Made by a program: the position numbers and the translations under genes. This document shows, one piece after another, positions 2,998 to 27,326 of a DNA stretch of 32,000 bases. Location of the stretch: NCBI RefSeq assembly GCF_003044035.1, contig NZ_NVQC01000007.1, forward strand, positions 25,454-57,453, read 5' to 3'. Positions within the stretch are counted from its first letter, which is position 1; every line of letters begins with the position of its first letter. The notes below the pieces were generated by a model. The model saw nothing but the letters and a program-made list of their open reading frames with translations, was not told where the DNA came from and did not search any database. The DNA is from Candidatus Methylomirabilis limnetica (GTDB lineage Bacteria > Methylomirabilota > Methylomirabilia > Methylomirabilales > Methylomirabilaceae).

Positions 2998-3827
2998 AGC
3001 GTTCGCCCTACTTGCACTGGAAAGACCAGCGGCGGCAGGATCAACTCCCGGAGCCCAGACGATTTCGTCTGTCGAATCGTGAGCGTGAGCTCCACAGCCA
3101 ACGGCATACGATCAGAGCCCTTCAGGGCGCGCTGCCCCTGTGCAGGGACGAATCTCCGAGCTGGGGGCTGCGGCGTCTCGTCTTGGGAAGGATCCCAAGA
3201 ATCGCGCCAGGCGGGGGGAAGATTTTCCTCCGGCCTGCCCTCCGGCACCAGGTACCGAAAGCGCGCCTGCAACGCTCGTTCATCGAGCGGTTTGACTGAA
3301 TCCTCGAACGAGGCGGATGCCTGAGTAGCAAGAGGGTAGCTTCCTGTGGCCACCAGTCCCCGACCAGACTCGACGGCATAGGCCACGATCCTGACCATGT
3401 GACTGAATGGTTCGGCCCCGTAGCTCTGTGGAAGGGTAGCAAACTTGAGGGAGTCCGACTTGCCATGAAAGGCGATGACATCCTTATCCTGCTCTTTCAC
3501 ACGCAAAGGGTGTATCATCGTAAGGTCTCGTGCGAGGGTCTCGACAAGGGTGCGATTGCGCTGGCTCTCTTCCGCCCGCGCCTCCCCGCTCTCCCACGAC
3601 TTGGCTCCAACCTGGATCGCACCAAGTACGGCGACGAAGATAAGCGACAGGATCGTCAGCGAGATCAAGACCTCGATCAAGGTGAAGCCGTGCGGAGTGC
3701 GGAGTTCCAGGTTTCGGGTTTCGGGTTTCGGGTTTCGGGTTTCGGGAGTCCTGCTCTTGTCAGAAACCTGGAACGTGGAACTCGAAACTAGAAACTCGAA
3801 ACTCGAAACTTGCTTACTGCACCACAC
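2994..3827 (-). CDS. gspJ: Type II secretion minor pseudopilin GspJ-like
   Basis: 277 aa. Prepilin motif PHG|FTLIEVLISLTILSLIFVAV. Size and position between gspI and gspK fit. The only in-frame start is GTG 3827, which gives an unusually long ~46-aa leader encoded by heptamer palindrome B. Confidence 0.7.
   Translation of the reverse strand: MWCSKQVSSFEFLVSSSTFQVSDKSRTPETRNPKPETRNLELRTPHGFTLIEVLISLTILSLIFVAVLGAIQVGAKSWESGEARAEESQRNRTLVETLARDLTMIHPLRVKEQDKDVIAFHGKSDSLKFATLPQSYGAEPFSHMVRIVAYAVESGRGLVATGSYPLATQASASFEDSVKPLDERALQARFRYLVPEGRPEENLPPAWRDSWDPSQDETPQPPARRFVPAQGQRALKGSDRMPLAVELTLTIRQTKSSGLRELILPPLVFPVQVGRTL
3705..3808. repeat. Heptamer-palindrome element B: (GTTTCGG)x5 ... (CTCGAAA/CTAGAAA)x4
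   Basis: Five perfect tandem GTTTCGG at 3711-3745 and four tandem CTCGAAA-type heptads at 3781-3808. There is also a perfect 11-bp inverted repeat, TTCCAGGTTTC 3705-3715 / GAAACCTGGAA 3763-3773. The element sits at the gspI stop / gspJ start. Confidence 0.85.
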
Positions 3828-9257: not shown

Positions 9258-9525
9258 GACCCCCACAGGGGATTCCCCGAGGGCGCCCCACTCCTATTTA
9301 CAACGTAGCCTGTTCCTGAGTTCCGATGATGCGAGGGGCGGCAATAACAATGAGCGATCCTTCCTCAGCGGGCATCCGGTGCTTTTCTGGATTCCCCGGT
9401 CAAGCCGGGAAATAACAAGTATAGTAAACGGTGTCGTCATTATTCTAAGGCCGTTAAGAACTTCCTGAAGATTATCGCGTGGACTCAGTCAATGCAGTGA
9501 GGAACCTTTGACAGGAGGGTGAAAA

Positions 9526-9666
9526 ATGGGGGAATCGGGAAAGACAGCAGAGCTTATCGATCGTGAGGCGAAGGAGTCCAAAGCCGCCTACGAGCGGCCT
9601 ATCCTCAGACGGGTGGGGTGGCTTCGGGATGTGACCGCTCAGGCGAGCATAGATACTATTGAGTGA
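9526..9666 (+). CDS. RiPP precursor peptide A (46 aa), lasso-type leader, predicted core QASIDTIE
   Basis: Not in the ORF track. GGAGGG lies 6 nt upstream of the ATG. MGESGKTAELIDREAKESKAAYERPILRRVGWLRDVTA|QASIDTIE matches Y-x2-P-x-L-x3-G-x5-T-x. Confidence 0.75.
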   Translation: MGESGKTAELIDREAKESKAAYERPILRRVGWLRDVTAQASIDTIE

Positions 9667-9691
9667 GGAACCTTTGACGGGAGGGTAAAAA

Positions 9692-9826
9692 ATGGGGGAA
9701 TCGGGAAAGACAGCAGAGCTTATCGATCGTGAGGCGAAGGAGTCCAAAGCCCCCTACCAGCGTCCCACCCTCAGGCGAGTGGGGTGGCTTCGGGATGTGA
9801 CCGCTAACGGAAGCACTGATACTTAG
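9692..9826 (+). CDS. RiPP precursor peptide B (44 aa), predicted core NGSTDT
   Basis: Tandem paralogue of A, offset 166 nt, same RBS. MGESGKTAELIDREAKESKAPYQRPTLRRVGWLRDVTA|NGSTDT. The first 20 codons are identical to A. Confidence 0.75.
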   Translation: MGESGKTAELIDREAKESKAPYQRPTLRRVGWLRDVTANGSTDT

Positions 9827-22641: not shown

Positions 22642-23352
22642 TCAGCAGGGTAGGACAGGCAGGATCGGCAGGCGATTTAGCACTTGGCGATGGAACTTCC
22701 ACGTGGGCATGAATCGGTCCATTAGCGCGACGAAACGGGCGTTATGGGTCGGTTCCAGCAGGTGAACCAGTTCGTGAACGACAATGTATTCGAGGCACTC
22801 CGCCGGCTTCTTGGTTAGCTCGGTGTTGAGGCGAATCGTGCGCGCCTTGTGGTTGCAGCTCCCCCACCTGGTCTTCATCCGTCGCACGAACAACCGCTCC
22901 ACTCTCACGCCCAGCAGCGGCTGCCATCGCGCGAGCAATGGCGACACAGCCTCCTTCAACTGCTCTCGATACCATTCCTCTACGAGCGCCCTCCTCTTGT
23001 CTTCATCTGATCGCGGTCGCACCCGCAGATGCATGCAGCCGTGCTTCACCTCGATTGAGGGTGGCTCATCGCTCTCGGAAACGGTAAGCAAGTAGCGCTC
23101 GCCCCACACGTAGTGGCTTTCCCGCTCCACGTATTCCCGAGGCGTTTCGCGTTCCTGCTCCCGCAGCCTCGTCTGCTGCTGCTTGATCCAGTCCAACTTC
23201 GAGATGGCGAAGAAGCGGATCGTGTCGATGCTCATGCGCTTCGGGGCCGAGATGCGGACGCGGCCCATCGGGGGATGGACGCTGAGATGAACGTTTTTGA
23301 TGTCCTTCAGGACCACGTCCACCGCGATGTCACCCAGATTGATCTGCGACAT
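22642..23352 (-). CDS. YgjP-like M48-family zinc metallopeptidase (DUF45)
   Basis: WGSCNHKARTIRLNTELTKKPAECLEYIVVHELVHLLEPTHNARF contains HExxH. This gene commonly follows hsdR in type I R-M loci. The start is taken at ATG 23352 (MSQINLG...); the track uses TTG 23358. Confidence 0.8.
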   Translation of the reverse strand: MSQINLGDIAVDVVLKDIKNVHLSVHPPMGRVRISAPKRMSIDTIRFFAISKLDWIKQQQTRLREQERETPREYVERESHYVWGERYLLTVSESDEPPSIEVKHGCMHLRVRPRSDEDKRRALVEEWYREQLKEAVSPLLARWQPLLGVRVERLFVRRMKTRWGSCNHKARTIRLNTELTKKPAECLEYIVVHELVHLLEPTHNARFVALMDRFMPTWKFHRQVLNRLPILPVLPC

Positions 23353-23354
23353 CC

Positions 23355-23834
23355 TCAATACTCGCCCTGCGCCTTGATGATCAGGAAGATGCGCTCCACC
23401 TCAGCCACATCATTGTTCAGTAGCGGCAGCAATGCGCCCTTAAGCGTTACCTCCTCGGCGATGGCGAAGTCGTTCTGCTCCGGCTCGTGCCAGTTGATGA
23501 GGTGGACTTTCTCCGTCACCTTGCCCGCCTCGGTCTTCACGTCTACACCGTAGCGCAGCAGCTTGTAGACGGCCTGGTTGTTGCCGTAGAGTGTGCGGCT
23601 GTGACTGTCCGCCTCGGTGCGCAGGTCGTAGAGCGCCTTGGAAATCTGCGCCGGGCTGTAGCGGCACTTAGTCAGCCATGCGGCGAGCAAACCTTCATCG
23701 ATGTTACTGTTGCCGTCGCGGTCGGTCCAGTCACCGAGGTAGCGGTAGCGCAGTTCATCGCGGAACAGGGCGATGACCCGATTCTGCGTGGCGCGCTCGG
23801 GCTGGCCGACGGCGTTCACTTCACGACCTCCCAA
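23355..23834 (-). pseudogene. hsdR: Type I restriction enzyme HsdR remnant (N-terminal ~135 aa joined to a short C-terminal tail)
   Basis: GQPERATQNRVIALFRDELRYRYLGDWTDRDGNSNIDEGLL...VHLINWHEPEQNDFAIAEEVTLKG matches the HsdR N-terminal domain. The ORF is 159 aa versus ~1000 aa for the intact enzyme, and the helicase motifs are absent. Confidence 0.65.
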
Positions 23835-24937
23835 TAGCCGCCTTTTGCCGAGCCGATTCGTCGCACGCGGTTCTGCTGCCGGAGTTGCCTGAGATTTCGC
23901 TCGATGGATCGGTCCGTAATGCCGAGCATGCGTGCCATCTCCGGGATCGTGGCATCGGGATTCGCAATCAGATACGCGAGGATTTTCCCCGACGTTTTCC
24001 CCGACGTTTCACCGACCTTCTCCCCCAACAGCCGATGGGCCTCCTTCTCGCCCAACGCAGCACTCAGGTGCTCGGGGTTGGCTTTGAACGTCAGCATCAA
24101 GCCGGAAAGGCTGGCGTCGTAGATCGGCGCCTCGATGCCATGCTCGCGACACTCGCGCGCAATCTTCTCGATGCCGCGTCCCCAAGACTCGATGTAGCCC
24201 GCACGGAAGAAGGCGTTGGCCAGCAGGGGATTGAAGGGGTGCGACGGGTGCTTGCCCCTCAGCTTCTCCAGCGTCCAGCTCTGCGGCAACTGACCTGGAT
24301 TCCACAACACGATCTGGTGCTCGTAGACGCTGATTTGGATCGGGATGGCACTGCTGTAGTCCTTATGCACTACCGCATTCAGCAGGGCCTCGCGCAACGC
24401 GCCGTCGGGGAACAGAAAGGTCTCCAGCCACTGCACACCTTGGTAGCTGATATAGGCCTTTAGGTACTTCTGGTGAAGAATCTCCAGCGTTTTCTCGACC
24501 TGCTCGAACAGGTTTCCGCGCATCTCGTCCTGGTAACGCAGATCGTCGTCGGTAACGAAGAAGCCGATCTTGATCCAGGCCCCGCCGACGTAGTGCTGCG
24601 GCCGCTCGGAGAACAACAGGTAGGCGGCACGCTTCAGATACTGGCCCTCGGTCAGTTCCAGGTTGTCCAGAACGGCCTCACGGCTGTCGTTCAACACCGC
24701 TTCGTCCATACGACCGCTGCGTACCGCTCGCTGCGCAAACAGCCGGAGGGCGTCCTGACTGCAGTCTGCGGCATGGAAGGTCGGTTCGGGAACGCCGTCC
24801 CAATGCAGGCCGCGCTTCCTAAGCAGGAACCGCTCGAGGGCCGCGCCCTTGAGGGCCTGGTTGGTACTGCCGCTCCGATAATGGTATTCGCCTCTGAGGC
24901 TGATCGGGTTATGGAATGGAGAATGGAGAGTGGAGAA
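23816..24937 (-). pseudogene. AlbA_2/HATPase_c_4-type putative DNA-binding ATPase-like protein, 5'-truncated
   Basis: ALLNAVVHKDYSS..PIQISVYEHQIVLWNPG...HPFNPLLANAFFRAGYIESWGRGIEKI plus a C-terminal wHTH. The frame stays open upstream of the track ATG (ISLRGEYHYRSGSTNQALKGAALERFLLRKRGLHWDGVP...) up to a stop at 24938-24940, where the cassette repeat begins. The N-terminal AlbA_2 domain is missing. Confidence 0.7.
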
Positions 24938-24956
24938 TTATTGGGCATGGGAGTAA

Positions 24957-25404
24957 AATTGAAAGTGGAGAATGGAGAGTGGAGAATTATTGAGCATGCT
25001 TGTCTTTCCTCGATGTTTTGACGATCGAGACCAGCAGCTTGACCAGTTCTTCGCTGTCTGTTCGGATCGATGTAAAGCTCTGCTCAGCGATGTACTCGGC
25101 TTGGTGCAGCAACTCCAGCCAGTAGAGAGTTTCGTTGGCTTCCTTGAGCGCGATGTTCATCTTGTGGGTAAAGTCTGGTTTGCTCTCGGCATGTTCCGCC
25201 TCGCGTACCAGCGCACCAATTGCGGTCCCGCTGCGTAACACCTGCTTGGACAGCACAAACTCCTTCTTCTCGTCCTGCAAATATTTCGCCAACCTTACCA
25301 CGCGAAGCGCAAACGCAAACGACTTCGCCTTTACAACGTTTTCCTTCATTCTCAATTTCCTATTCCCTCATTCTCCATTCTCCATTTTCAATTCTCAATT
25401 TATT
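24957..25404 (-). mobile_element. Four-helix-bundle gene cassette 1 bounded by ~33-bp imperfect inverted repeats (GGAGAATGGAGA-type)
   Basis: The left flank AATTGAAAGTGGAGAATGGAGAGTGGAGAATTATT resembles the reverse complement of the right flank ...CATTCTCCATTCTCCATTTTCAATTCTCAATTTATT. The block repeats at 26108-26555 with 5-6 mismatches by eye. Confidence 0.5.
24987..25349 (-). CDS. Four-helix-bundle protein (23S rRNA intervening-sequence protein / Avd family)
   Basis: MKENVVKAKSFAFALRVVRLAKYLQDEKKEFVLSKQVLRSGTAIGALVREAEHAESKPDFTHKMNIALKEANETLYWLELL is the hallmark of this family. The start is taken at ATG 25349. Confidence 0.85.
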   Translation of the reverse strand: MKENVVKAKSFAFALRVVRLAKYLQDEKKEFVLSKQVLRSGTAIGALVREAEHAESKPDFTHKMNIALKEANETLYWLELLHQAEYIAEQSFTSIRTDSEELVKLLVSIVKTSRKDKHAQ

Positions 25405-25414
25405 AACCGGTCGT

Positions 25415-25801
25415 CTACACTTTGCGCACGGGCCCGGGGTACCGGGCCAGTTGCGCGTCGCCGGTGAGGAGGATGATGCCCTCGCTTAAGGCCTGGGCCA
25501 GCAGCAGGCGGTCGAAGGGATCTTTGTGCAGTGGGGGCAAGCTGTCGATGTTTACCGCGTGCTGACTGGTGATGGGAAGCTCGGTATAGCCGTTGTCGAG
25601 CAAACCCCGGCGCAGCAGGCGTGGCTCGACGCGGAAGTCTTCCCGCCCCAGGGTATTCTTGATGGCGATCTCCCACAGGCTGGCGGCGCTAAAGAGGAGC
25701 TCGTTGCGCGGGTCGTTCAGGAGCTTACGCGCCGCCGCGGAGAGCCGCTCGGGCTGGCCGGCCGCCCAAAGCAGGATCTGAGTGTCCAGCAAGAGCTTCA
25801 C
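25415..25801 (-). CDS. vapC: Type II toxin VapC (PIN domain ribonuclease)
   Basis: 128 aa. LLLDTQILLW...LFSAASLWEIAIK...HKDPFDRLLLAQA..GIILLTGD carries the PIN acidic residues. GTGA overlap with the antitoxin. Confidence 0.85.
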   Translation of the reverse strand: MKLLLDTQILLWAAGQPERLSAAARKLLNDPRNELLFSAASLWEIAIKNTLGREDFRVEPRLLRRGLLDNGYTELPITSQHAVNIDSLPPLHKDPFDRLLLAQALSEGIILLTGDAQLARYPGPVRKV

Positions 25802-26037
25802 GCCCCGCTCCCGAACAGGGCCGCGATCTCGGCTTCGCCCATGCTGTCAAAATCTTCGGGTACGGCGATCTCGCCCGCCAGGAAGCCCAGCCGTTTCGGC
25901 GCCACTGGGGTATCCAGTGCCGCAACCTTCACCAGTGGCTTGCCCGCCTTGGCGATCACGAACGCTTCGCCCTTGACCGCTTGATCGACCAGCTTCGAGA
26001 GCTGGGTCTTGGCTTCATGGATGTTGACGGTAACCAT
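25798..26037 (-). CDS. vapB: Type II antitoxin (Phd/YefM-fold) partner of VapC
   Basis: MVTVNIHEAKTQLSKLVDQAVKGEAFVIAKAGKPLVKV... ATG 26037 is preceded by GGAGG at 5 nt. The track's TTG 26049 start would include the RBS. Confidence 0.8.
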   Translation of the reverse strand: MVTVNIHEAKTQLSKLVDQAVKGEAFVIAKAGKPLVKVAALDTPVAPKRLGFLAGEIAVPEDFDSMGEAEIAALFGSGA

Positions 26038-26050
26038 ATCGACCTCCAAA

Positions 26051-26072
26051 GACTAAGTTAATAAGACTAAGT
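26051..26072 (-). promoter_or_regulatory. Candidate vapBC operator: direct repeats GACTAAGT x2
   Basis: GACTAAGT occurs at 26051-26058 and 26065-26072 (14-nt period), immediately upstream of the vapB RBS in an AT-rich stretch. Confidence 0.3.
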
Positions 26073-26107
26073 CTACTCCGTCGCCCTCCCACCGTCAAGG
26101 AGAGTAC

Positions 26108-26555
26108 AATTGAGAGTGGAGAATGGAGAGTGGAGAATTATTTGGCATGCTTGTCTTTCCTTGATGTTTTGACGATCTAGACCAGCAGCTTGACCAGTTC
26201 TTCGCTGTCTGTTCGGATCGATGTAAAGCTCTGCTCAGCGATGTACTCGGCTTGGTGCAGCAACTCCAGCCAGTAGAGAGTTTCGTTGGCTTCCTTGAGC
26301 GCGATGTTCATCTTGTGGGTAAAGTCTGGTTTGCTCTCGGCATGTTCCGCCTCGCGTACCAGCGCACCAATTGCGGTCCCGCTACGTAACACCTGCTTGG
26401 ACAGCACAAACTCCTTCTTCTCGTCCTGCAAATATTTCGCCAACCTTACCACGCGAAGCGCAAACGCAAACGACTTCGCCTTTACAACGTTTTCCTTCAT
26501 TCTCAATTTCCTATTCCCTCATTCTCCATTCTCCATTTTCAATTCTCAATTTATT
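26108..26555 (-). mobile_element. Four-helix-bundle gene cassette 2 (direct repeat of cassette 1, offset 1151 bp)
   Basis: It has the same inverted-repeat flanks as cassette 1. By hand alignment, 24965-25404 versus 26116-26555 differ at 5 positions. Confidence 0.5.
26177..26500 (-). CDS. Four-helix-bundle protein copy 2, C-terminally shortened by a TCG>TAG nonsense change
   Basis: The protein is identical to copy 1 through ...EELVKLLV. Copy 1 reads GATCGAGACC where copy 2 reads GATCTAGACC, a premature stop that removes the last 13 aa. Confidence 0.75.
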   Translation of the reverse strand: MKENVVKAKSFAFALRVVRLAKYLQDEKKEFVLSKQVLRSGTAIGALVREAEHAESKPDFTHKMNIALKEANETLYWLELLHQAEYIAEQSFTSIRTDSEELVKLLV

Positions 26556-26777
26556 TACCACTCGTAGCGCAAACGCAAACGACTTGTCTTTGACAATATT
26601 GTCCTTCATTCTCAATTTCCTATTCCCTCATTCTCCATTCTCCATTTTCAATTCTCAATTTATTTACCACTCGTAGCGCAAACGCAAACGACTTGTCTTT
26701 GACAATATTGTCCTTCATTCTCAATTTCCTATTCCCTCATTCTCCATTCTCCATTTTCAATTCTCAATTTTCAATTC
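26498..26777. repeat. Tandem 109-bp repeat (about 2.5 units): cassette right-flank IR plus the 5' stump of a divergent four-helix-bundle ORF
   Basis: The unit landmark CAT (ATG on the minus strand) recurs at 26498, 26607 and 26716. Each stump encodes MKDNIVKDKSFAFALRVV and then runs into the IR. Confidence 0.85.
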
Positions 26778-27038
26778 CCCATGCCACACGCCAACGATCC
26801 AGACCACCTGCCCCTTGACGCGATAGAAGAAGCGGTACGGCGCAATTACAACTTCACGCTGAGGAAGGTCGGGAAACTCCGGGATCGCCCGGCCTGATTC
26901 CGGAAATTTCACGAGTCTTTTGAGAACAGTCTCCGCACGTCGGCGGAACCGCAATGCGGCGTCGGGTTTGTCGCGGCGAATATACGCGAGAGCAGAAAGA
27001 AATTGGGTTCGGGCGGAGGGGGTGAAGAGGATTTTCAC
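26757..27038 (-). CDS. RelE/ParE family type II toxin
   Basis: 93 aa. MKILFTPSARTQFLSALAYIRRDKPDAALRFRRRAETVLKRLVKFPESGRAIPE...YRFFYRV.GQVVWIVGVWHG. The last ~6 codons and the stop lie inside the 109-bp repeat array. Confidence 0.8.
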   Translation of the reverse strand: MKILFTPSARTQFLSALAYIRRDKPDAALRFRRRAETVLKRLVKFPESGRAIPEFPDLPQREVVIAPYRFFYRVKGQVVWIVGVWHGELKIEN

Positions 27039-27041
27039 CGG

Positions 27042-27326
27042 TCAATCTTCCGCCAATAACTCATCAGCCTCCGCCATCACGGTTTCCAGATCATACCCCT
27101 TCCCCGCGGCGATCTCTTTGTCTCCGCGGGCCAGGAGGCGAAGAAGCTGTCTGTCGTGCTCCGCCTTTTCGTATGCGTCTGTACTCATCATCACCGCTGC
27201 GGCCCGACCGCGTTGAGTAATGATGACCGGCTCTTTCGTGTTCTGAACGCGCTTAAGCACGCTTGCCGCGTCCTGACGAAGGTCAGTGATCGGAATTAGA
27301 TTCGGCAGCTTGCCCATTGGTCTCAC
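27042..27326 (-). CDS. Phd/YefM family antitoxin
   Basis: 94 aa. IPITDLRQDAASVLKRVQNTKEPVIITQRGRAAAVMMSTDAYEK. It ends 3 nt upstream of the toxin GTG. Confidence 0.8.
   Translation of the reverse strand: MRPMGKLPNLIPITDLRQDAASVLKRVQNTKEPVIITQRGRAAAVMMSTDAYEKAEHDRQLLRLLARGDKEIAAGKGYDLETVMAEADELLAED

Follow-up and report, generated by a model that had tools for sequence, protein, structure and literature searches.

A four-helix-bundle gene nested in a hairpin of heptamer repeats, within operons of many bacterial phyla

Why does a small gene of the family found in 23S rRNA intervening sequences (IVSs) occur twice, together with several fragments, among protein-coding genes in Candidatus Methylomirabilis limnetica? 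To address this question, we analyzed a 32,000-nucleotide stretch of contig NZ_NVQC01000007.1 (the window), in which the original prediction had described two ~445-bp blocks bracketing a vapBC module, each block being an open reading frame (ORF) enclosed by inverted repeats, along with a 3' stump and a 109-bp tandem array of 5' stumps. These observations held in every detail. The blocks, 24957-25404 and 26108-26555, are 448 bp long, lie at a fixed offset of 1151 bp, and differ at 6 positions (24963, 24992, 24993, 25011, 25027, and 25233), although their identity actually begins at 24951/26102. Each block carries a minus-strand ORF that matches PF05635 (E = 1.5e-26; 93.1 bits against a cutoff of 33.8), TIGR02436 (E = 1.8e-29; 102 bits against a cutoff of 24), and PDB 2RLD (E = 8.7e-42), and PF05635 is its only Pfam match. 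The gene thus belongs to the four-helix-bundle (4HB) family of 23S rRNA IVS proteins, which is related to Avd.

The features of the locus are listed below, all on the minus strand. Homologous loci used for comparison carry L numbers: L216, L223, and L229 are relatives with intact type I restriction-modification (R-M) operons, L216/217 are filled sites, and L215, L218, and L219 are empty sites.

22642-23834: remains of a type I R-M operon, with hsdR reduced to 159 codons (23355-23834; REase_I, 7.8e-40) and a YgjP-like metallopeptidase (22642-23358).
23816-24907: AlbA_2/HATPase_c_4/HTH gene truncated at its 5' end; about the first 88 codons are missing (full-length homologues have 450-470 aa), the in-frame remnant starts at PISLRGEYH directly after the stump's 3' arm, and the called ORF is 23816-24709.
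24691-24948: "exit ORF" (85 aa, MPNNSPLSILHS...), which starts at the ATG embedded in the stump's last codons, reads through the 3' arm, and stops 16 nt past the ATG (24709) of the truncated downstream gene.
24911-24951: 3' stump, a relic of the last four codons and stop of an older cassette (CATGCCCAATAA, 24940-24951) followed by its 3' heptamer arm (24911-24939).
24957-24986: 3' heptamer arm of cassette copy 1 (sense strand TTCTCCACTCTCCATTCTCCACTTTCAATT).
24987-25349: 4HB gene copy 1, intact; the true start is the ATG at 25349, giving 120 aa.
25350-25399: 5' heptamer arm of copy 1 (sense strand ATTGAGAATTGAAAATGGAGAATGGAGAATGAGGGAATAGGAAATTGAGA), containing GGAG motifs, ATG/TTG, and TGA codons; the 45 nt upstream of the ATG are 93% identical to L223.
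25400-25411: relic (ACCGGTTAATAA) of the cassette-linked hsdS 3' end, half of the palindrome TTAACCGGACGnnTCCGGTTAA that ends hsdS in filled sites.
25415-26037: Phd-type antitoxin (25798-26037) and PIN/VapC toxin (25415-25801) module, bracketed by the two cassettes, with its own promoter-like site at 26098-26070.
26108-26137: 3' heptamer arm of cassette copy 2.
26138-26500: 4HB gene copy 2, with a premature TAG at codon 108 (26177-26179).
26501-26555: 5' heptamer arm of copy 2.
26556-26783: two tandem 109-bp 5' stumps, each a 5' arm plus the first 18 codons of a divergent paralogue (ORF fragments 26556-26609 and 26665-26718); the junction lies between GTGGTAA and ATAAATTGAG, and the outermost arm overlaps the last codons of parE.
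26757-27326: ParE toxin (26757-27038), whose C terminus (..GELKIEN*) is read from the heptamer array, and Phd/YefM antitoxin (27042-27326).

The window therefore holds two full and three partial copies of the unit. In copy 2, Ser108 (TCG) becomes TAG, and there is also a Q120K change and three synonymous changes; since the stop lies at the very end of the Pfam domain match, the truncated product may still fold. The 3' stump (24914-24949) is 92% identical to the 3' end of copy 1 (24963-24998) and matches the true 3' end of the orthologous cassette in L223 (CATGCCCAATAAttctcc...ccattccata), including its outer edge. The tandem array comprises 3.0 copies of a 109-bp unit (96% matches, score 592) at 26446-26770, and its two stumps encode MKDNIVKDKSFAFALRVV, which is 83% identical to the first 18 codons of the full copies. 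Contig L001, which is the same locus in another assembly, has an N-gap across this array and so gives no information on copy number.

We next examined the inverted repeats. The arms, 24957-24981 and 25369-25393, are 25 nt and 92% complementary, and they consist of tandem heptamers (AATGGAG/AATTGAG); a tandem repeat search reported period 7 at 24914-24987, 25347-25400, and 26108-26138, among others. As RNA, the arms extend to an interrupted duplex of about 31 bp (-39 kcal/mol for copy 1 and -34.9 kcal/mol for copy 2), and the minimum-energy fold of the whole cassette closes on this stem (z = -3.6). The ORF-in-a-stem architecture proposed in the original prediction is thus real and is the same design as that of ORF-bearing 23S rRNA IVSs. 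However, no rRNA or other Rfam family was found in the window or in 20 related loci, and the neighbors are protein genes.

We then analyzed 75 homologous loci from more than ten phyla. Period-7 arrays lie upstream of the ORF in 59/75 loci and downstream in 52/75 (68/75 on at least one side), whereas periods 5, 6, 8, and 9 give 0-1 and control windows give 3%. Each locus's own arms pair at -34 kcal/mol, compared to -24.7 kcal/mol for cross-locus arms and -20.4 kcal/mol for shuffled arms (P = 6e-8 and 1e-13, respectively). The heptamer type differs between lineages but stays complementary within a locus, and the same holds in cultured Nostoc and Treponema. The stem shows no sense versus antisense asymmetry (39:39), so nothing distinguishes RNA pairing from DNA hairpin or cruciform pairing. 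The ORF is under strong purifying selection (dN/dS of about 0.03-0.07 among homologues; 0.03-0.05 for copy 1 against homologues), and the arms keep the same heptamer family even though dS is saturated. Stumps and partial copies are a recurrent property of the family (L021, L022, L040, and L042).

The unit is embedded in operons, with 72/75 upstream and 64/72 downstream neighbors co-oriented with it. About 40% of the upstream neighbors are type I R-M genes, usually hsdS. Upstream neighbors include HsdS (13), HsdM (6), ResIII (HsdR-type helicase; 7), and RhuM (4) of 75, and downstream neighbors include AlbA_2 (6), HsdR (4-6), and YgjP (3). All four of the closest homologue clusters sit in hsdM-hsdS-[4HB]-(AlbA_2)-hsdR operons. 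No paper in the library searched describes the unit in this setting. Given these relatives, the "protein-coding neighborhood" of the original prediction is specifically a decayed type I R-M operon, in which hsdM and hsdS are lost, toxin-antitoxin modules have moved in, the AlbA_2 gene is truncated at its 5' end, and only 159 codons of hsdR remain.

To determine whether the unit is an insertion, we compared filled and empty sites. In L218, L219, and L215, hsdS overlaps AlbA_2 at GGTATGA, whereas L216/217 have the cassette plus a second, displaced copy of the hsdS end. This pair of filled and empty sites shows that the unit is an insertion that carries its own copy of the hsdS 3' end, although the displaced duplication was seen in only two locus types, L216/217 and L025, with shorter residues in L223, L229, and L015. 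The palindrome that ends hsdS in filled sites, half of which remains next to copy 1, was identified by comparison with L015, L016, L017, L022, L023, L055, L216, L223, and L229, and it is absent from the empty sites.

These comparisons bear on whether the 4HB gene is instead a resident accessory gene, i.e., a functional component or regulator of type I R-M and other defense or toxin-antitoxin operons, with the hairpins being ordinary intercistronic regulatory structures of the host and the window pattern reflecting local duplication and decay. The strong purifying selection, the R-M context, the saturated dS between genomes, and the presence of ORF-less hairpins at other junctions of the same operons (L015, L018, and L027) favor this reading. 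In contrast, the same unit also sits between ABC transporter genes, between hipS and hipT, beside housekeeping genes, and, in the literature, inside 23S rRNA; its distribution across phyla is patchy; and the filled and empty sites show insertion. We consider this alternative possible but less likely.

The 3' end of the unit suggested how downstream translation might be maintained. In L216, L223, and L229, the homologous exit ORFs are in frame and end exactly at the next gene's ATGA, and in L005-L014 the exit ORF is the hsdR N terminus, where two arm lengths differ by 21 nt. The exit ORF thus ends at the next start in three independent locus types and is fused to hsdR in a fourth, although the embedded ATG is present in only 25/77 loci. 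In this window, the downstream genes are broken, so coupling cannot be functional here.

We then asked whether the heptamer hairpin depends on the ORF. Wide occurrence of the repeats without the ORF had been set beforehand as an outcome that would count against the association, and it is literally met: at least 120 ORF-less hairpins of the same heptamer family were found in metagenomes, two more lie in the R-M operon of the closest relative (L015), and two of another heptamer type (GTTTCGA) lie in this window. No 4HB gene lies within 520 kb around 80 of the ORF-less hairpins, so the ORF is not needed for the hairpin to exist. The association is still far from coincidental, but the heptamer hairpin is the more general entity and the ORF is a passenger or partner. 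The interpretation offered in the original prediction is therefore only partly supported. Its proposal of serial insertion at a hotspot is not shown, since the stumps are equally well explained by unequal recombination or slippage within a former tandem array, and no target-site duplication, transposase, or recombinase was found.

The abundance of short ORF-less versions, the inverted repeats bounding the ORF, and the clustering of partial copies at one site could also suggest a nonautonomous DNA transposon (MITE- or IS-like), with the arrays serving as terminal inverted repeats for a transposase encoded elsewhere and the stumps being footprints of nested insertion and excision. However, no transposase or integrase was found in the window or next to 80 homologous loci; no short target-site duplication was found, the only flanking duplication being 34-39 nt of the hsdS 3' end in L216/217 and L025; and the arms vary in unit number and have no fixed ends. 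Insertion points also preserve reading frames and gene ends, which is not expected from cut-and-paste insertion. This reading appears unlikely.

Since PF05635 is homologous to Avd, and since small same-strand cassettes, including toxin-antitoxin modules, resemble chromosomal integron arrays, we also considered a remnant of a diversity-generating retroelement (DGR) or an integron cassette array. No reverse transcriptase was found among the window's larger ORFs or next to the 80 homologous loci, and there is no template/variable repeat pair, the only repeats being the cassette copies. As the original prediction stated, the locus is not a DGR. No IntI was found, nor any attC-like element, albeit without a formal attC model, and the boundaries are heptamer arrays. 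Both readings are very unlikely.

Taken together, these results indicate, with a probability of roughly 0.6, that the unit is the operon-borne counterpart of the ORF-bearing 23S rRNA IVS: a 120-aa 4HB gene in the loop of a hairpin whose G-rich AATKGAG-type arm lies upstream and whose complement lies downstream. The subfamily to which the window copies belong lives in type I R-M operons, at the 3' end of hsdS. In this model, the unit is co-transcribed with its host operon and is translationally "transparent." It would carry a replacement hsdS C terminus on its 5' side, and the 5' arm would supply stop codons, GGAG, and ATG for the 4HB gene. An ATG embedded about 11 nt before the 4HB stop would open the exit ORF, which reads through the stop-free 3' arm, in frame, into the displaced native hsdS end and terminates on the ATGA start of the next gene; in other loci it becomes the N terminus of HsdR or HipT. 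In the RNA, the arms would pair into a duplex of about 30 bp, the kind of substrate that RNase III cuts in the rRNA versions, so the transcript is probably processed or stabilized there. The unit would spread and rearrange by recombination and not by an encoded transposase, with crossovers in the conserved hsdS 3' region carrying it between operons, and slippage or unequal exchange in the heptamer arrays and between tandem copies producing unit-number variation, stumps, and the 448-bp duplication around vapBC. The anatomy and predicted fold, family membership, period-7 arrays, arm pairing, selection, operon context, filled and empty sites, exit ORF reading frames, and window relics rest directly on our analyses, whereas co-transcription, RNase III processing, use of the exit ORF, and the route of rearrangement are inferred from sequence and by analogy. 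Because synonymous divergence between copies in different genomes is mostly saturated, recent transfer is not demonstrated. Strong selection maintains the 4HB protein.

A further possibility is a partnership like that of REPINs and RAYTs (PMC3116915), in which the 4HB oligomer itself binds the heptamer arrays, as DNA or RNA, and creates, maintains, or spreads hairpins genome-wide, its own gene being flanked by its substrates. The inverted arrays around the gene, the dispersed ORF-less hairpins, and the tracking of heptamer type with protein clade are consistent with this idea. Avd-family proteins are said to bind nucleic acid. However, the window's own ORF-less hairpins use a different heptamer from the cassette, no 4HB gene lies near 80 ORF-less hairpins, the 4HB fold has no known catalytic motif, and the clade-heptamer correlation is confounded by host phylogeny; we regard this partnership as unlikely. 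In a broader and similarly doubtful form, the hairpin and the 4HB protein may constitute a previously unrecognized, pan-bacterial element system. Because 7 is 1 modulo 3, gain or loss of single units in a translated 3' arm would then act as a frame adaptor or phase switch for the downstream gene (hsdR, hipT, or AlbA_2). If so, it would unify three old puzzles, namely, the rRNA IVS ORF, cyanobacterial heptamer hairpins, and the many orphan "four helix bundle" genes.

Among known systems, the ORF-bearing 23S rRNA IVSs of Leptospira, Coxiella burnetii, and Xanthomonas (S23p) share the protein family, the ORF in the loop of a stem formed by terminal inverted repeats, and a small size (about 430-450 nt). 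The Coxiella IVS has an S23p ORF, a 28-bp terminal stem, RNase III cleavage within the stem, and strain-variable tandem heptamers at the start codon (PMC4990558), where the present unit also has tandem heptamers. The present unit is not in an rRNA gene but lies between protein-coding genes, carries a copy of the hsdS 3' end, and has an exit ORF that would keep downstream translation coupled. Cyanobacterial short tandemly repeated repetitive (STRR) hairpins are likewise tandem 7-bp units in inverted arrays within intercistronic spacers, and they have been proposed to stabilize transcripts or couple translation (PMC2670836); in Nostoc, 4HB genes are themselves flanked by such arrays. The arms of the present unit belong to the same class as these STRR hairpins, and the ORF-less heptamer hairpins are STRR-like. 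Here, in contrast, a protein gene sits in the loop, and the host is not a (filamentous) cyanobacterium: the closest loci are Nitrospira MAGs (92% and 86%), the window is about 59% GC, and the arrays occur in many noncyanobacterial phyla. We did not find STRRs described as carriers of PF05635 genes.

In REP/REPIN systems, a single gene is also flanked by inverted copies of a short repeat that occurs dispersed as hairpin-forming doublets without the gene. RAYT, however, is an IS200-like tyrosine transposase, whereas the 4HB protein has no known catalytic activity, and the repeats here are tandem heptamer arrays rather than 20- to 30-nt palindromes. Avd, the DGR accessory protein, is a homologous four-helix-bundle fold (PF05635/cd16375) in a different genomic architecture. 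Finally, integrating elements that rebuild the 3' end of their target gene, such as islands or phages in tRNA genes, resemble the filled site in carrying a second copy of that end, so that the interrupted gene (hsdS) stays intact. Here, there is no integrase, the duplicated segment is coding sequence of a conserved HsdS region, and the mechanism is probably homologous or illegitimate recombination.

The original prediction held as an observation, since everything that it described is present in the sequence: two nearly identical blocks bracketing vapBC as direct repeats, an ORF within inverted repeats in each block, a 3' stump, a tandem array of 5' stumps and a nonsense change in copy 2. The blocks lie at a constant offset of 1151 bp and differ at six positions. 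The features are as follows.

24957-25404, first block (cassette 1), with a minus-strand ORF of 120 aa counted from the ATG at 25349
26108-26555, second block (cassette 2), with a minus-strand ORF of 120 aa counted from the ATG at 26500
26177-26179, nonsense codon in copy 2, Ser108 to TAG
24911-24951, 3' stump
25400-25411, the last 12 nt of a palindromic hsdS end, retained by copy 1
26030-26100, promoter-like site and palindrome upstream of the Phd-type antitoxin/VapC pair

The ORF matches PF05635 (E 1.5e-26), TIGR02436 and the pentameric four-helix-bundle (4HB) structure 2RLD (E 8.7e-42), and it is bounded by inverted arms built from tandem heptamers. Folded as RNA, the arms form an interrupted duplex of about 31 bp (-39 kcal/mol for copy 1 and -34.9 for copy 2), and the minimum-energy fold of the whole cassette closes on that stem (z = -3.6). 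The tandem array has a unit of 109 bp (3.0 copies, 96% matches) and contains 18-codon fragments of a divergent paralogue. Although we sought evidence for copy-number variation of this array in contig L001, another assembly of the same locus, L001 has an N-gap at this position and thus says nothing about copy number.

All genes from 22.6 to 28.1 kb are on the minus strand. In the direction of transcription, a radical-SAM fragment is followed by a Phd/ParE pair, two 5' stumps, cassette 2, a Phd-type antitoxin with VapC, cassette 1, the 3' stump, an AlbA_2/HATPase_c_4/HTH gene that lacks about its first 88 codons (full-length homologues are 450-470 aa), an hsdR reduced to 159 codons (PADLOC REase_I, 7.8e-40) and a YgjP-like peptidase. 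PADLOC gave no meaningful defence-family hit for the 4HB protein. The locus is a decayed type I restriction-modification (R-M) operon. Intact relatives read hsdM-hsdS-[4HB cassette]-AlbA_2-hsdR (related loci L216/217 and L223-228) or hsdM-hsdS-[4HB]-hsdR (L005-014 and L229-234). The best genome matches are Nitrospira MAGs, at 92% and 86%. The promoter-like site upstream of the antitoxin/VapC pair reads TTGACG-N17-TAGACT and is accompanied by the palindrome AGACTTAGTCTTATTAACTTAGTCT, which is probably the antitoxin operator.

The window has no integrase, transposase or reverse transcriptase among its larger ORFs, and the rest of it is a T2SS operon and metabolic genes. At 9496-9826, a 166-bp tandem duplication encodes two small ORFs, 9526-9666 and 9692-9826 (46 and 44 aa), just upstream of a Mur-ligase-like gene, a radical-SAM gene and an NTP_transf_5 gene. 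Both begin MGESGKTAELIDREAKESKAxYxRPxLRRVGWLRDVTA and end in short variable tails. They look like a pair of RiPP precursor peptides with a YxxPxLx3Gx5T-type leader motif.

The cassette is one member of a very large, conserved class. PF05635 genes are very abundant, as 7,999 of the 8,000 candidates scored in one protein search matched at E <= 0.001, and the top 120 listed were about 75-97% identical. In 80 genome loci from Nitrospirota, Acidobacteriota, Bacteroidota, Planctomycetota, Chloroflexota, Proteobacteria and others, the flanks almost always consist of tandem heptamers upstream and their reverse complement downstream. At a threshold of 15/21 lag-7 identities, 59/75 loci have an upstream array and 52/75 a downstream array, with 43 having both and 68 at least one, whereas periods 5, 6, 8 and 9 give 0-1 hits and control windows from the same loci give 3%. 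The 80-nt flanks of a locus pair with each other at a mean of -34.0 kcal/mol, relative to -24.7 for flanks taken from different loci and -20.4 for shuffled 3' flanks (p = 6e-8 and 1e-13). Although the heptamer differs between lineages (AATTGAG/AATGGAG, AGTTGAC, AGTGGAA, AATGGTT, AATGGAT, GTCGGAG and others), the two arms of one locus stay complementary, which is covariation at the level of whole arms. The ORF is under strong purifying selection, with dN/dS of 0.03-0.07 and dS about 2 or saturated, and the arms still keep the same heptamer family and 67-80% ungapped identity where third codon positions are about 50% identical.

In sponge-associated MAGs (loci L037-L042, L075 and L080), 4HB genes with identical or near-identical N-termini (MKENIIASKS or MKGNIIALKS) and AATTGAA/AATTGAG arms occur in genomes assigned to different classes and phyla from one project. 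They come with long runs of partial 3'-end copies (L040, 4800-5200) and arrays of arm-plus-spacer repeats (L040, 400-900). These observations suggest either recent exchange or binning cross-talk.

We next assessed whether the hairpin also occurs without the gene. A metagenome scan for the same heptamers as a hairpin with a loop of only 6-36 nt, which is too short to hold an ORF, returned at least 120 stretches, and no 4HB gene lies within the 520 kb around 80 of them. A scan of viral contigs gave no hits. The related loci also contain ORF-less heptamer hairpins of many other families (GTTGACC, AGGACTG, GCAGAAT, GGTTGCA, AATGTTG, GTTTCGA and more), nearly all with the G-rich arm first. Of 88 such hairpins 82 were G-rich first, although this count includes loci that had been selected by pattern (L175-L214), and about 40 versus 5 remain by eye once these are removed. 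The R-M operon of the closest relative (L015) has two such hairpins at other gene junctions. The window has two of its own, in the intercistronic spacers between T2SS pseudopilin/GspK genes on the minus strand.

2890-2990, ORF-less hairpin with (GTTTCGA)n/(TCGAAAC)n arms, RNA folding energy -58 kcal/mol
3704-3813, ORF-less hairpin with (GGTTTCG)n/(CGAAACT)n arms, RNA folding energy -37 kcal/mol

These two belong to the same class as STRR hairpins but use a different heptamer from the 4HB cassettes, and ORF callers read them as N-terminal extensions of the downstream genes. We considered whether ORF-less loops are ORF relics (ATG...AATAA), but the heptamer itself contains ATG, which leaves this reading undecided. 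The ORF-less structures correspond to the STRR heptamer hairpins of filamentous cyanobacteria, which were described between hupS and hupL and were proposed to stabilise transcripts or couple translation (PMC2670836). Nostoc 4HB genes are themselves flanked by such arrays. Of the two outcomes named beforehand as contrary to the original prediction, the first, copies of the ORF lacking the repeats, fails to refute it, whereas the second, repeats occurring widely without the ORF, was indeed found. The hairpin is thus the more general entity, but the array and pairing statistics still exclude a coincidental association with the ORF.

Neighbours are co-oriented with the 4HB gene in 72/75 loci upstream and 64/72 downstream. 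Upstream neighbours include HsdS (13), HsdM (6), ResIII, an HsdR-type helicase (7), RhuM (4) and ABC ATPases (11), and downstream neighbours include ABC-2 permeases (9), AlbA_2 genes (6), HsdR (4-6), YgjP (3) and HipA_C (3). A comparison of filled and empty sites is decisive for insertion. In the empty sites L218, L219 and L215, the hsdS stop overlaps the AlbA_2 start (the protein ends LLTGRxRLV, at GGTATGA). In L216/217 the cassette lies between them and the last 40-55 nt of hsdS occur twice: the upstream copy uses a distinctive palindromic codon choice (GTTAACCGGACGAGTCCGGTTAAC) and is joined to the 5' arm, while the displaced native copy lies after the 3' arm. A search for short target-site duplications found only array-derived repeats apart from this duplication of the hsdS end. 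The palindromic hsdS end marks filled sites generally (L015-017, L020, L022, L023, L055, L223 and L229). Since window copy 1 retains its last 12 nt (ACCGGTTAATAA, 25400-25411), it descends from an hsdS-linked cassette whose hsdS was later lost.

Sequence features at both edges of the unit suggested translational 'TRANSPARENCY'. In the Nitrospira-type subfamily, the last codons of the 4HB gene contain an out-of-frame ATG (CATGCCCAATAA). This ATG opens MPDNSPFSIFNSPFKNDLALKHGMMQELLTGRTRLV in L216, MPNNSPFSIFHSPFHTGIRLV in L223 and MPSNSPLATFNFPFSRRIRLV in L229, each of which reads through the 3' arm, in frame, into the residual native hsdS end and stops on the GTATGA that starts the next gene. 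In L005-014 the same ATG is the called start of hsdR, whose body follows the arm directly, and two arm variants differ by 21 nt, which is three heptamers and so stays in frame. In L033, L061 and L076, the cassette sits between a HipA-N-terminal-domain gene (HipS-like) and a HipA_C kinase gene (HipT-like), and the kinase ORF starts at an ATGA that overlaps the 4HB stop and also reads through the 3' arm. On the 5' side, hsdS in L005 and parE in this window are read into the array until a TGA. Gene callers likewise extend hsdS through the 5' arm (ending GRIRIANGKLKMENGE and a stop) and start hsdR inside the 4HB gene (MPNNSPFSIFNSPFQTERATQ) in the related loci L005-L014 (including L006), L223-L234 and L216/217. 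Single-heptamer changes would shift the frame, which makes this a possible phase-variation site for hsdR.

AATTGAG units contain TGA and TTG, AATGGAG units contain ATG and GGAG, and the complementary arm of these heptamer types has no stop codon in any frame. We therefore infer, from sequence only, that the arms let an insertion terminate the upstream gene, start the 4HB gene and re-start the downstream gene, albeit with an embedded ATG present in only 25/77 loci. The arms also score as sigma-70-like promoters (TTGAGA-N17-GAGAAT) pointing inward toward the loop from both sides, at 25370-25398, 26521-26549, 26630-26658 and 26739-26774 on the minus strand and at 24931-24987 and 26110-26138 on the plus strand, with 10 sites in the region against 1.3 expected. 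The 17-nt spacing follows arithmetically from four TTGANAA units. These are consensus matches only, and we do not rely on them.

The paired arms would give an RNA duplex of about 30 bp, which is the kind of substrate that RNase III cuts. In the experimentally studied relative, the Coxiella 23S rRNA IVS, an S23p ORF is accompanied by a 28-bp terminal stem, RNase III cuts inside the stem and tandem heptamers (GACAGAT) of strain-variable number at the start codon (PMC4990558). Similar processing is inferred here by analogy. When sense and antisense duplex energies were compared to distinguish RNA from DNA pairing and to pick a strand, no asymmetry was observed (39:39), so DNA-level hairpins cannot be excluded.

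These comparisons allowed us to infer a history for the window locus. The 3' stump has the same end (CATGCCCAATAA plus the arm plus CCATTCCATA) as the orthologous cassette in L223, and it still abuts the AlbA_2 gene, but at about codon 89. The stump would therefore be the original resident 3' end, and a deletion would have removed the junction and the 5' part of AlbA_2. The 5' stumps join codon 18/19 (GTGGTAA) to the outer edge of a 5' arm (TAAATAAATTGAG), a junction that has TAA microhomology and was then amplified in tandem. The two full copies differ by 1.3% and bracket vapBC, which has its own promoter-like site. The simplest reading has three steps: a former tandem array of cassettes at the hsdS-AlbA_2 junction; unequal exchange or slippage among arms and ORF segments; and arrival of TA modules while hsdM/hsdS and most of hsdR were lost. 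The interpretation in the original prediction was partly supported, in that the ORF-in-a-stem architecture was confirmed and a diversity-generating retroelement was rightly rejected, whereas the proposed serial insertions at one hotspot are possible but not required. Taken together, the anatomy of the cassette, the pairing of its arms, the selection on its ORF, its place in operons and its insertion at filled sites are shown by the analysis, whereas the translational coupling, cleavage by RNase III, the history of this locus, the mode of spread and any role for the 4HB protein rest at most on inference.

We also considered other kinds of element. The unit is not a DGR, as no RT was found among the window's larger ORFs and there is no TR/VR pair, and it is not an integron array, as no IntI was found among those ORFs and the cassette boundaries are heptamer arrays, not attC. 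It is not an rRNA IVS by location, since Rfam searches of the window and 20 related loci, at gathering and E-value thresholds, found no known RNA family and no rRNA context. A classical IS or MITE appears unlikely, given that no transposase was found among the window's larger ORFs or next to 80 homologous loci, that no short target duplication was found and that the arms vary in length.

Searches of the literature, which covered open-access papers only and so cannot exclude prior description elsewhere, found no account of PF05635 genes as the loop cargo of heptamer hairpins outside rRNA, of their embedding at hsdS 3' ends with a duplicated gene end, or of the exit ORF that the embedded ATG would open. 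For annotation, the architecture explains spurious N- and C-terminal extensions of hsdS, hsdR and parE that are read from the arrays, and it may also bear on how type I R-M operons control hsdR expression. The protein family, its presence in rRNA IVSs, the Coxiella heptamers, STRR hairpins and the homology to Avd were already known. STRRs have been a puzzle since about 1990. The S23p/4HB ORF of the IVS has been one since at least 1993, according to the papers cited in PMC4990558. Read with its relatives, this locus shows that the rRNA IVS ORF, the cyanobacterial STRR repeats and the abundant PF05635 genes are one architecture, in which a strongly conserved 4HB gene is nested in a heptamer hairpin and embedded in operons, with features inferred to keep neighbouring genes translated, and it turns a vague "selfish IVS" idea into one open to experiment.
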